In this document: positions 26,967-50,270 of the stretch, in pieces
Position numbering within the stretch: position 1 is the stretch's first letter
How the letters are laid out: every line of letters starts with the position of its first letter
From: Eledone cirrhosa
Lineage: Eukaryota
Length of the DNA: 64,000 nucleotides
Direction of reading: 5' to 3'
NCBI GenBank assembly: GCA_964016885.1
Contig: OZ024743.1
Coordinates: 308,326,001 to 308,390,000, forward strand
Notes under the pieces: generated by a model
Database searches by the model: none
Seen by the model: only the letters and a program-made list of their open reading frames with translations
Told to the model about the DNA's origin: nothing
Program-made: the position numbers and the translations under genes

Positions 26967-27055
26967 ACAGATTGATTTTTTTTTTTTTTTTTTTAGTCTC
27001 AGAAGATCCCATTAAGGGTGAAAACAGCCGATTCTTTGCTTAAACTTTAATCTGT
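26967..27055 (+). ncRNA. Type I HHR, CAGAAGA-core family copy
   Basis: acagattga..agtct-CAGAAGA-tccc(attaa)gggt-GAAA-aca..tgc-TT-aaact.ttaatctgt. Confidence 0.55.
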
Positions 27056-27346
27056 TATTTTAATAAATATTTGCTCTACGGTTCTTATATAATTGATATA
27101 TATTTATCCCTATCGAGTCCTCTTTGGATGTTAGTCTTCAAATTTATTATTATTACTATTTGGCTCCCTTGACTGAGTACTGTATTGACTTATATTCATA
27201 ATGCAGAAACATCTGAATATTTCTACAAAGAACATACCCGTACCAAGCAGGAAGAAATACCTAAAACTACGTCTCCACGAACCAAAGTATCGCCTTCCTG
27301 TCTTCCTTCGGTTGCAACGTTTTTCGAAATATTTACTTCTGCGTTC

Positions 27347-27429
27347 ACAGATTGATTTTTTTTTTTTTAGTTTCAGAAGATCCCATTAAGGGTGAAAGCA
27401 GCCGATTCTTTGCTTAAACTTTAATCTGT
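27347..27429 (+). ncRNA. Type I HHR, CAGAAGA-core family copy
   Basis: acagattga(T)n agttt-CAGAAGA-tccc(attaa)gggt-GAAA-gca..tgc-TT-aaact ttaatctgt. Confidence 0.65.
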
Positions 27430-27596
27430 TATTTTAATAAATATTTGCTCTACGGTTCTTATATAATTGATATATATTTATCCCTATCGAGCCCTCTTTG
27501 GATTTTAGTCTTCATATGTATTATTACTATATATATATATATATATATATATATATATATATATATATATATATATATATATATATATATATATAT

Positions 27597-29058
27597 GGGA
27601 TGCTCTGGAGAGGAGCAATTATAGGGGTATAAAACTGATGGATCAGGTTATGAAAGTGGCAGAAAGGATATTAGCACAACTAATTAGAGAAAGGGTCAAA
27701 CTAGATGAGATGCAGTTTGGTTTTGTGCCTGGGAAAAGTACAACAGATGCCCTCTTCTTGGTGAGACAATTACAAGAGAGGTTCTTAGAGAAGAATAAGC
27801 CACTAGACTTAGCCTTTGTTGACCTAGAGAAGGACTTTGATAGGGTACCCCGATCTGTCATCTGGTGGTCCCTAAGGAAGCTAGGTGTTGAATGGCTTGT
27901 AAGGGCAGTGCAAACTTTGTACAGAAGTACTCTCAGTAAAGTCAGGGTAGGAATGGAGTTTAGTGAGGAATTCCAGATACAAGTAGGAGTACATCAGGGT
28001 TCGGTCCTCAGCCCGCTCTTGTTCATTATAGTCCTCCAAGCCATAACAGAGGAGTTTAAGACTGGCTGTCCATGGGAACTTCTCTATGCTGACGATCTGG
28101 TTCTTATAGCAGAATCAGTAGAGTAGCTAGAGAATAAATTCTGGCTATGGAAACAGCAGTTGGAAGCAAAAGGACTGAGAGTGAACCTAGCTAAGACAAA
28201 AGTGTTGATGAGTAGAAAAGAGGACAAAACCCTGATTCCGTCAGGTAAATGGCCATGTTCGATATGCAGAAAAGGAACTGGCATAAATTCTATAAAATGC
28301 ACACAATGCAGATCCTGGGTACACAAGAGATGTAGCGGGATAGCAGGCAAACTAACAGGTAGGGAGAAATATGTATGCAGTAGATGTACAGGGAAATTAG
28401 ACGGTAGAAGTCGCATTGATAGACACATTTTTCAGATGCAGGAGGGCGCTATAGAAGTGGTGGATAGCTTCCGTTACCTAGGAGATCAGATTAGCATGGG
28501 AGGAGGGTGTTCCGAGGCCATAGTATCTAGAATAAGGACGGGTTGGAAGAAGTTTAGGGAGCTGCTTCCTCTGTTGACGAAGAAGGTTTCTCCCTGCGTA
28601 CGAAAGGCCGGTTGTATGATGCCTGTGTGAGGAGTGCGATGCTGCATGGTAGTGAGACATGGGCAGCAACTGCAGAGGATATGCGACGGCTGGAGAGAAA
28701 TAGGGCAAGCATGCTCCTTTGGATGTGTAGTGTAAATGTGCGCGAACGACCCAGCATAAATGTGTTGAGAGAGAATGTAGTGTACGGGAGAGGAGACTGA
28801 GGTGATATGGACATGTGATGCGCATGGAGGATGACCAATGGGTGAAGAAGTGCCAGGAAATGCCAGTTGAAGGAAAACGTGGTAGAGGTAGACCACGAAA
28901 AACATGGGCGGAGGTGGTGAGAACAGACCTCAGATCATTGAAGCTCACGGTGGAGATGACGAAAGACCGTAACGAGTGGAGAGATGCTGTGCTGAATAAG
29001 ACCCGTCCCACCCTTGCAAGCAGGGAAAAGCGGACGTAAAATGATGATGATGATGATG
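27597..29058 (+). mobile_element. 5'-truncated RTE-clade LINE with a PHD-like finger inside the RT region (pseudogene)
   Basis: QFGFVPGKST, AFVDLEK.FDRV, GVHQGSVLSP, YADD, CSIC..CTQC..H..C..CSRC, FRYLG, RGRGRPRKTW; stop at 28124-28126 and frameshifts; (gat)n tail. Confidence 0.95.
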
Positions 29059-29127
29059 ATATATATATGTGTGTGTGTATATATTAGTTTATATATATGT
29101 GTGTATATATATATATATATACATATT

Positions 29128-29492
29128 GAGAGCATTGGCCTTGCAATCGAAAAGTTGTGAGTTCAATTCTCACACCGGGTGATGTGTTGTTTCCTTGAGC
29201 AAGACACTTAATTTCACATTGCTCCAGTTTACTCAGCTGTAGAAATGAGATGATAGGACTGGGGTCCCACTCATTCCACTGCAAAGTGGTCGTGGAGGTG
29301 CCACGGCAAAAAAGCACCCAGCCCACACTGTAAAGTGGATGTGGAGGTGCCACGGGAAAAAAGCACCCAGCACTCACTGTAAATGAGGTTGGTGTTAGGA
29401 AGGGTATCCAGCTGTAGAAATCAAGCCAGAATCGGTTCCCGTCCCACCCTTGCAAGCAGGGAAAAAGTGGACGTAAAATGAAATGATGATGA
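29128..29492 (+). mobile_element. CORE-type SINE (5'-clipped)
   Basis: Same family as 15698-16024. Confidence 0.9.
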
Positions 29493-29496
29493 ATGT

Positions 29497-48013: not shown

Positions 48014-48089
48014 TATATATATATATATATATATATATATATATATATATATATATATATATATATATATATATATATATATATATATA

Positions 48090-49132
48090 CTACCAGAATG
48101 GCCCGGCGTTGCTCGGGCTTCTAAACATAGATTGCCATGTTTATCCCTCCTTTCTGAAACAGTACAGAGAAATGTACGGAATAACTCGACCTGGGGATGG
48201 TGTCTACATTTTGTGTCTTTAGGCAAATCATTTTCCATTAAGATTTTTCAAAAGCATGTAATTGCGTTCTCTCCCTTTTTTGTTGTTTTTGTTGCTGTTG
48301 GTGTGATAGCAGCCGTTGGTCGTACTACTAACACAGTCTCGTCCTTCTTCAGCCAATCGTGTATATCCCCTTCTTTCTCGCCTACCTAAACAATGATTGT
48401 AGCACCTCCTTGTACACAATGTTCCTTGTTCTTCCGTGTCGGGCATATGCAAAGAGATTTGTCTTTCTTCCCACTCTTGAGCAGCCAACGTATAGTTGCC
48501 CGTGACGAATTTATTCCTAGTTGGTGATTGGTAAAGAAAATAAAAATGTTCCGCTTAACGTCAGCGTACGTGATTTTATCATAGGTTTGGGGATATTTTG
48601 GCGGGGGTTTTCTAAAAGATCCACTATTTCTATCTAGTGGGGTTAGTGGAAATGTCTCAGGATATGTTATCAAAAAATTAGTAACTGACACTTACCGATT
48701 GAAAAATAAGCCGATCGTCGGAATGGTATTCTCAACTGTAATTGGTAACCTGGGCTGGCTTTCCTCACTTATGTACCAAGATAGATAGAAATTACCGCTT
48801 AACGCCAGCGTATGTGATTTTTAACATATGTGTGGGGATATTTTTGGGCGGGAGCTTTCTAAAAAGATCCACTATTTCTATTTATGTACATAATGGGTTA
48901 TATGGCTTGGTACTAACACCAATAATAATGTGTGCAACGGGGGTAAGTGATTATGTCTCAGAAAGTATTGCAAACAAATATTAAAGCAACTGGGGTAAGT
49001 GGGATGTCTCAGGATTGTTAGCCAAAAAATTAGTAAATGACACTTACTGATTGAAAAATAAGCCGACCGTCGGAAAGGTATTCTCAAGTGTAATTGTTAA
49101 CCTGGGCTGGCTTGTCTCGCTTATATTATATA
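48090..49132 (-). mobile_element. Non-autonomous Helitron with internal ~370-bp duplication
   Basis: 3' end is the reverse complement of 44220-44247, with CTAG changed to GTAG. Confidence 0.75.
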
Positions 49133-49395
49133 TTAAAATAACAGATTAAAGTTTAAGCAAAGAATCGCTGCATTCACCCGTAACGGGATCTGCTGAAACT
49201 AAAAAAATCAATCTGTGAACCCAGAAGTAAATATTTCGAAAAACGTTGCAACCGAAGGAAAACAGGAAGACGATACTTTGGTTCGTGAAGACGTTCCCTG
49301 GTAATGAACGGAAAATAGCGAAGGTAATACGTCAGCAATGACGTGTTTGTCATAATGTCATAATGCAGACAGCCAGACACACAGACATATTATAA
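49133..49395 (-). mobile_element. pLTR of the CAGAAGA-HHR PLE family (mutated HHR at 49141-49216)
   Basis: Matches 27270-27435 and 43685-43730 in reverse. Confidence 0.8.
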
Positions 49396-49666
49396 GGGCG
49401 CGACGGAGATCGATAACCGGCACCTAACAGCCCTTTAACAACAGAAAATTGAAAAATAAAAGCTGCAGTTAATATATTTAGACCGCAAGGAATATATAAA
49501 TGCAAGTTTGAAGTCAATCCGAGTAGAAATGTGGATTTGTATAGACTTTTCAAAATTAGGACACACACACACACACAGACAATTACAGTTTTATATATAT
49601 GTGTATATATATATATAGGTATATATATATATATATATATATATATATATATATATATATATATAT

Positions 49667-49965
49667 CAACTCTGGATGTCGGTGAGCATGTCCAGCTAAC
49701 CTCAGTCTCCTCTGTGTCACTTTTGAGCTGACTTTTGGGATCCTCCCATACAGCTCTGAGTTTTTCATCCTCAGTGTATACTGATTAATGTTCAGTACTC
49801 CTTTGGGAGCCCCTACATGGACACACTAGAAGAGGAAGACCAAGGTTAACGTATGTTGATGCCCTAAGGACAGACACTGGTCTGTTGGAGACGCAGGACA
49901 TGGCAGCGATAATGAGGGACAGAGACCGCTGGAGAGAACTCGTCCACGGGAATTTTACCCGCCTT
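49667..49965. mobile_element. Short RTE-like LINE insertion with a 5' inversion
   Basis: Minus segment NSELYGRIPKVSSKVTQRRLRLAGHAHRHPEL abuts plus segment VLLWEPLHGHTRRGRPRLTYVDAL..DRDRWR. Confidence 0.8.
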
Positions 49966-50009
49966 AGATATATATACACACACACACATATATATATATA
50001 TATATAGTA

Positions 50010-50270
50010 ATAATAATAAATTTGAAGACTAAAATCCCAAGCGGGTTCGATAAGGATAAATATATATCAAATATATAAGAACCGTAGAGCAAATATTTAT
50101 TAAAATAACAGATTAAAGTTTAAGCAAAGAATCGCTGCTTTCACCCTTAACGGGATCTTACGTTTTTTGAAATATCCACTTCTGCGTTTACAGATTGACT
50201 TTGTTAGTTTCAGAAGATCCTGTTAAGCAGCGATTCTTTGCTTAAACTTTAATCTGTTATTTTAATAAAT
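50010..50270. mobile_element. Inverted pair of pLTR fragments of the CAGAAGA-HHR family
   Basis: 50010-50159 (-) joined directly to 50160-50270 (+). Confidence 0.8.

Follow-up and report, generated by a model that had tools for sequence, protein, structure and literature searches.

Copies in the window

The window analysed here is a stretch of 64,000 nucleotides from Eledone cirrhosa (assembly GCA_964016885.1, contig OZ024743.1, positions 308,326,001 to 308,390,000 of the forward strand). It contains seven copies of a hammerhead ribozyme sequence located in the pseudo-long terminal repeat (pLTR) of a very abundant Penelope-like retrotransposon (PLE) of the Hydra clade, in whose catalytic core the near-invariant U4 is replaced by A (U4A). 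Judged by its sequence, this pLTR may well carry an attenuated type I hammerhead that is still under selection, since older relatives of the family have U4 and the fold remained unchanged after U4A.

All seven copies were located where an earlier note on this DNA had placed them (Table 1), and each of the six copies with C3-N4 reads A4, as the note had stated. Its description as full hammerheads holds for the copies at 27347 and 43834, while the other five are truncated or decayed. The 43834 copy comprises on its 5′ side a 9-bp outer stem I, a 7-nt U-rich bulge and a 5-bp inner stem I, then the core CAGAAGA, the U.U mismatch, a 3-bp stem II and GAAA, and on its 3′ side a 3-bp stem III plus A15.1-U16.1, followed by the CUU triplet. 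This manual parse agrees with the cut that the note had predicted after the UU at 43894-43895. The 49141 copy reads CAGCAGA and GAAU at the respective motifs. The two pieces at 50004..50159 and 50160..50272 lie head-to-head and form a typical Penelope inverted junction. The core 7-mer occurs 21 times in the window versus 8.1 expected, an excess that stems partly from nine matches within an unrelated tandem repeat of an open reading frame (ORF). An Rfam scan of the window gave no hammerhead family match at E≤1.

Table 1. Copies and pieces of the pLTR family in the window
Feature	Position	Strand	C3	A4	Remarks
Intact type I hammerhead fold (43834 copy)	43834..43909	+	43855	43856	Solo pLTR piece ending in (TA)n; inferred capped start 43850; predicted cut after 43895
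Intact hammerhead (27347 copy)	27347..27429	+	27374	27375	Second unit of 374-bp non-autonomous tandem; loop III with extra C, loop II with A
First tandem unit (26967 copy)	26967..27055	+	27000	27001	Stem I mismatch; G15.2>A; enlarged poly-U bulge
ORF stub (first ~22 codons)	27201..27268	+			Joined straight to next pLTR; read against locus L041
5′-truncated copy (41145 copy)	41145..41207	-	41199	41198	Without outer 5′ stem; stem I mismatch
pLTR piece with decayed hammerhead (49141 copy)	49127..49294	-	49195	49194	A6>C; A15.1>U
Inverted 5′-truncated copy (50108 copy)	50004..50159	-			Starts after C3-N4, no core
Direct copy (50190 copy)	50160..50272	+	50211	50212	8-nt deletion takes out GAAA; (TA)n end
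Short pLTR piece	44169..44219	-			From downstream of the hammerhead

The copies at 26967 and 27347 are units of an internal-deletion derivative of the element, which is marked as such by the ORF stub and repeated at about 374 bp. Tandem spacing varied from 334 to 387 bp across the genomic loci L001-L030, and units of the 26967/27347 type carry the A4 core. The pair resembles the animal non-LTR retrozymes (10.64898/2026.07.22.740005) in being non-coding, in its tandem arrangement at about 374 bp with one type I hammerhead in each unit, and in its derivation from a PLE pLTR; it differs from them in retaining an ORF stub, in travelling with an upstream repeat of more than 1.2 kb and in having A4. 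In the window (about 25700-27520) the tandem is accompanied by 0.9-1.2 kb or more of this upstream repeat, which is common to most of the loci L002-L030 at 89-95% with the same junction. Tandem and upstream repeat may constitute a composite mobilised in trans by the element.

Assignment to the Hydra clade

Many of the 20 regions fetched around close match pairs carry pieces of one ORF. At locus L041 this ORF is flanked by two direct pLTR copies 3,259 bp apart, which together with the protein motifs bears out the assignment to Penelope pLTRs made in the earlier note. Seven of 29 loci selected on protein have ORFs of 708-709 aa, and the core, where it lay within 300 nt upstream at protein-selected loci, was CAGAAGA in 19 of 19 cases, three of them preceding a 708-709-aa ORF. 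The 709-aa product contains FDINNYY (residue 251), YRDD (346) and IVYKC...AYIG (583), corresponding to a reverse transcriptase (RT) and a GIY-YIG-like domain, as well as DKT at residue 115 (a Hydra-clade trait, DKG being changed to DKT) and a CxCx5C linker (CNCRNRADC at 564). By eye, the GIY-YIG core harbors only one Cys and no CCHH. Since Pfam gave no matches for two ORF pieces of the family, the assignment to endonuclease-containing (EN+) elements is based on the motifs and on 504 unnamed homologues, the closest of which show 50-56% identity. (TA)n insertion flanks are present in the window and at further genomic loci, and inverted 5′-truncated copies with inverted junctions occur at genomic loci and in the window (50004-50272).

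By these motifs the element matches the Hydra-clade definition of Craig et al. (2021; PMC8557442 / 10.1101/2021.04.23.441226), which names DKT, the CxCx5C linker and (TA)n targets. Also shared with the elements described there are the C-terminal GIY-YIG-like motif, a type I hammerhead just before the 3′ end, the frequent U.U at the base of stem II and U17. The Eledone unit of 3.26 kb differs from the length given for the clade (generally <3 kb), and its A4 differs from the U4 found in 26 of 26 published Hydra-clade rows (File S2). Two 12-14-nt words from the Eledone hammerhead were absent from that supplement. An indirect pointer to the clade comes from the metagenome loci L111-114 (40-42% amino acid identity), whose hammerhead by eye closely resembles the published Hydra-1_aMil. 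The minimal hammerheads of PLEs reported by Cervera and De la Pena (2014; PMC4209133) likewise reside in pLTRs and occur as thousands of solo and inverted copies; low activity is expected for them, and one multicopy core variant (U3-A8) is known from that account. The Eledone hammerhead differs from them by its paired, non-palindromic stem III and its long stem I, and U4A is uncompensated at position 4.

Origin and spread of A4

The 3.0 Gb genome was searched with exact 18-mer patterns, which matched 21,645 copies with A4 and 240 with another base (21,885 in total). As the reversed sequence gave no match in the genome, this abundance is not due to chance. Among 100 listed copies of the 240 we counted by hand 39 T, 37 G and 24 C. 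Anchors outside of the hammerhead disclosed 11,610 copies, and in the first 42 Mb of contig 1 all 82 covered copies found in this way had A4. The proposal that the change occurred in the master element is corroborated by both samples.

A search with T fixed at position 4 recovered a few relatives that are much older. When no base was prescribed at this position, three T, one C and no A came from the oldest loop II type, and the other 96 listed copies gave 91 A, four T and one G (hand counts); about a dozen of the 91 A belong to young copies in which a base is inserted, and a junction artefact accounts for at least one T. The sister family in the same genome shows by eye CUGAUGA at the matching place of its pLTR, and CUGAGGA was found at the four outgroup metagenome loci L111-114 (four of seven loci), which probably represent one family. 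All 26 Hydra-clade rows of File S2 in Craig et al. (PMC8557442) begin with ctga. We concluded that U4A is derived, because U4, or decay from it, is seen in the oldest relatives, in the sister family and in the published rows. The possibility that a U4 subfamily is hidden among the young copies was considered and rejected, since the T4 copies are scattered over all subfamily backgrounds; exceptions among the T4 copies read are L036 and L371, both members of the oldest lineage. In older lineages, several of the T4 readings result from fold-back junctions and are artefacts. The contigs of the sequencing runs X1, X4, X5 and X6 contained no listed change at position 4, a result that, X5 and X6 being thin, was not used for other species.

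Apart from position 4 the core is canonical: the six remaining positions from C3 to A9 are standard, and GAAA (G12 A13 A14 A15.1), U16.1 and H17 are present, giving the CUU triplet. The G10.1-C11.1 pair is replaced by U.U. The earlier note had singled out this mismatch, which is, however, also found in 14 of the 26 Hydra-clade rows (hand count) and is known to be tolerated, U10.1.U11.1 being the best-tolerated mismatch according to Perreault et al. (PMC3088659). U.U and U17 are ordinary for the Hydra clade; both predate U4A and were therefore rejected as compensation for it.

In the open-access literature covered, we found no report on a natural U4A hammerhead. Known already are hammerheads in Hydra-clade pLTRs, the U.U mismatch and multicopy core variants. 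A related case is a natural U4C viroid hammerhead (Ambros and Flores 1998, cited in PMC3088659), in which position 4 is likewise changed and which is described there as having reduced activity in vitro and retained function in vivo. This variant is a pyrimidine change, whereas U4A introduces a purine and is fixed in more than 21,000 copies of several lineages. As the earlier note had expected, strict descriptors miss such a variant: the one of Cervera and De la Pena fixes ^cuganga (PMC4209133).

Conservation of stems and core after U4A

Arranged as a series, the majority sequences of the lineages differ in the bulge, in loops II and III and in the flanks but not in the stems or the core; the two oldest classes comprise only one and three copies. 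We compared 44 older copies with a 6-nt loop with a young reference at columns covered by at least five copies. Changed positions amounted to 0/40 in stems, 0/15 in the unpaired core, 6/21 in loops and 9/55 in flanks, thus 0/55 versus 15/76 (Fisher p=1.5e-4; p=0.001 for the stems and p=0.052 for the unpaired core). Similarly, substitutions present in at least 10% of the pooled hits of the young family affected none of 55 stem and core positions, 3/21 loop and 21/208 flank positions (0/55 versus 24/229, p=0.004). The 458 hits of this pool are partly selected and include 30 insertion-biased loci, 11 hand-picked regions and other selected loci, which are absent from the 82-copy set.

Conservation ends at both edges of outer stem I, whose 5′ strand sits upstream of the inferred transcription start, and the pairing of this stem was retained while the bulge turned over completely. 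Median divergence within the lineages was 7.1%, 3.6% and 1.8%, values that are biased low by pattern selection. Mutation rates per copy are alike in all structural classes, and the decay of individual copies is neutral under every model.

Inferred start and ends of the RNA

In 2,749 young copies the base immediately preceding the inner stem I strand is not T, whereas point mutation, judged from position 4, would account for about 240. Among 100 of these copies listed, the base was G in 52, A in 25 and C in 23 (hand count), and 28 of 30 such loci proved to be true 5′ junctions. About 1,400 copies thus start with an extra G five bases before C3. At fold-back junctions the G lies on the axis or on both arms, and in copies not selected for this trait 13 of 36 junctions at the inferred start show it. 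Because the element has T (young copies) or C (older copies) at this place, the G is untemplated. By analogy with other retroelements, we place a putative capped start at the A of TTAGTT/TCAGTT, which lies 5 nt ahead of C3; we take this sequence to resemble an initiator. In L1, the extra G found at the 5′ junctions of full-length copies is described as reflecting the cap, and internal Penelope promoters with an initiator and a downstream promoter element have been described as well. Splicing or trans-splicing was judged an unlikely source of the G, as no constant upstream sequence was found in 30 loci. The segments 1506-1524 of L041 and 43834-43852 of the window could also be taken for a 3′ splice site (pyrimidine tract, AG), at which no spliced junction was seen; in Drosophila virilis Penelope an intron is described as ending at helix I. 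With this start, the core occupies +6 to +12 and GAAA about +26 to +29 of the transcript, and the ATG follows 204 nt after the start.

Counted from C3, the 3′ ends of 273 copies lie at +67 to +69 in 111 and at +157 to +158 in 74 cases, and only one is within 2 nt of the cut at +40. The two ends (+69 and +157) are 88 nt apart rather than the usual 30-40. Since the 3′ ends lie beyond the cut and junctions are not in excess there, integrated copies derive from RNA that was uncut at both hammerheads. The earlier note had predicted RNA ends at the cut, but the DNA junctions pile up 5 nt before C3 instead. As a proxy for cleavage, cut-site junctions (912 matches, 17/30 true by eye) were compared with a control site (1,185 matches, 29/30 true), which adjoins the start hot spot, and with the canonical sister family, which shows no excess at its cut either (54 versus 171). 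The proxy was therefore rejected as uninformative and cannot tell a live ribozyme from a dead one. The sister family has an apparent junction hot spot at the corresponding position (hand count: about 41 of 100 listed); since the genomic base is G there, a cap cannot be told.

Folding models

A descriptor match confirmed three stems around the core with an open stem I, and 89.8% of the cells were paired in the hammerhead alignment compared to 19-53% when it was slid. In the models, A4 extends a competing helix that pairs the core with GAAA. With A4 this helix had a probability of 0.29-0.32, compared to 0.01-0.02 for three T4 copies that occur naturally; the 60-nt capped form gave 0.16 and 0.01, respectively. 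In longer fragments neither the hammerhead nor the competing fold was dominant.

A proposed attenuated ribozyme and its alternatives

If the hammerhead is an attenuated ribozyme, as we suppose with middling confidence, RNA polymerase II would start at the A named above, 5 nt ahead of C3, and the extra G would be a copy of the cap. Reverse transcription would begin about 29 or 117 nt beyond the cut, so that uncut RNA is the source of new copies. Rapid cutting would deprive the mRNA of its cap or eliminate the priming sites, and weak cleavage would hence be tolerated or favoured. A slowing of cleavage is predicted for A4, through loss of the U4 contact and through A4-U11.1 pairing in the competing helix. 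Residual cleavage would take place mainly in read-through or tandem transcripts, in which outer stem I and the bulge exist, perhaps assisted by the protein of the element, as it is in PAc, the Poseidon element of Anolis (Frangieh et al. 2024, PMC11167929), which does not need its hammerhead for insertion in vitro. PAc likewise has two internal RT start sites beyond the hammerhead, an uncut RNA substrate and no ends at the cut site. PAc has been assayed and cleaves only with protein, C3G or G8C abolishing cleavage; moreover, the PAc hammerhead overlaps the start codon, which in Eledone lies well downstream.

It is more doubtful that A4 is itself a selected tuning mutation that turned the hammerhead into a switch. 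This switch would be off in the capped mRNA and template, whose 5′ end coincides with the base of inner stem I and in which A4 is paired with U11.1; read-through or tandem RNA, or binding by the element protein, would be needed to turn it on. In that case a functional U4A hammerhead would be known from nature for the first time, with a date inside a retrotransposon lineage, and the persistence of Penelope hammerheads despite the descent of new copies from uncut RNA would be accounted for.

Several observations weigh against a ribozyme that is still selected for cleavage. Covariation, which the earlier note had proposed as a check, was not confirmed: one of 21 pairs was doubly changed and 196 of 500 shuffles reached the covariation score (two of the 14 aligned rows were misaligned by an inserted C), the stems being invariant and thus giving no signal; compensatory changes did not go beyond shuffles. 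Conservation of the catalytic bases alone is borderline and could reflect a promoter or RT-binding constraint, the invariant stretch continues beyond the hammerhead to +77, and the samples of older lineages are small, pattern-selected and thin at the 5′ end. The hammerhead fold of 43834-43909 lies 2.8 kcal/mol above the minimum free energy, the folding energy of this copy is no better than that of shuffles (z -1.10), and inner stem I reached P≤0.11; thermodynamics alone therefore does not establish the fold. Finally, in the mutagenesis of a type III hammerhead by Roberts et al., every single or double mutant in the CUGA region showed low activity, the C3/G8 swap being the exception. The mutagenesis and the invariant stretch to +77 would also suit a ribozyme that died at U4A while its sequence was kept as core-promoter DNA or as an RNA fold bound by the RT-endonuclease near the priming site, an explanation that we consider possible but the less probable one. 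The places of the core and GAAA close behind the transcription start, the lack of a junction pile-up at the cut, PAc insertion in vitro, which is unaffected by hammerhead mutants, and the Naiad elements, which spread without hammerheads (Craig et al., PMC8557442), are in line with it. However, all other catalytic bases were kept (0/15 changed), the pairing of the outer stem was retained upstream of the start despite the turnover of the bulge, and the canonical sister family lacks a pile-up as well.

Full activity of U4A as a monomer at near-normal speed, made possible by compensation from a long stem I bearing a U-rich bulge, from a loop II that ends in A and from the stable stem III, appears unlikely. 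The type I architecture is complete, stem III being paired, the changes that loop II and the bulge underwent after U4A could be compensation, and Perreault et al. (PMC3088659) argue that tertiary contacts offset core variants. On the other hand, the same account has U4 contacting the phosphate between positions 6 and 7, where A4 is a purine, the mutagenesis gave no rescue of the CUGA region by a second change, and the genomic copies stem from RNA uncut at both ends. Least probable is a neutral loss, by which U4A killed a dispensable ribozyme in one successful master too recently for decay. The young copies are only about 2% diverged and per-copy rates are alike across structural classes, but A4 spans all three lineages with the divergences given above, and over this span loops and flanks changed at 15/76 positions versus 0/55 in stems and core. 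Single copies decay neutrally under every model.

The role of hammerheads in EN+ Penelope elements is described as an open question by Craig et al. (PMC8557442). The family provides a natural experiment: a near-invariant core base underwent a datable change, the genome that carries it also contains U4 ancestors and natural revertant-like copies, and U4A preceded the largest expansion of the lineage. Whether the fold is live or reused, either outcome would be informative. The extra-G junctions place the start at the base of stem I and constrain models in which cleavage makes the 5′ end. CUGANGA descriptors and Rfam miss more than 21,000 motifs in this one genome.

Other elements in the window and the genome

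The second Hydra-clade family, the sister family mentioned above, is present in the window at 57027-58511 (+) and as tandem pieces at 1988-6421 (+), with full copies at the loci L118-L127. Its ORF of about 800 aa is 37% identical to that of the first family, and its hammerhead has the canonical CUGAUGA, a long stem II and a palindromic helix III. Both families share the short motif CGGTTGAGC just upstream of the ORF. Three more hammerhead-like motifs with canonical CUGA reside in the window at 7134 (+), 32711 (+) and 38885 (-); the types at 7134 and 38885 recur at other loci. The same genome contains a multicopy hammerhead family with a U3-A8 core swap (L058, L067 and L085), and at least five other canonical hammerhead families were seen in the fetched loci. 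A C-terminal piece of a different Penelope-like element lies at 45423-46166 (-) and matches Pfam GIY-YIG (E 6.9e-07). At 50490-56213, ORF translations on both strands disclosed fragments with RT, RNase H and integrase motifs, which we presume to be Gypsy/Ty3-like.

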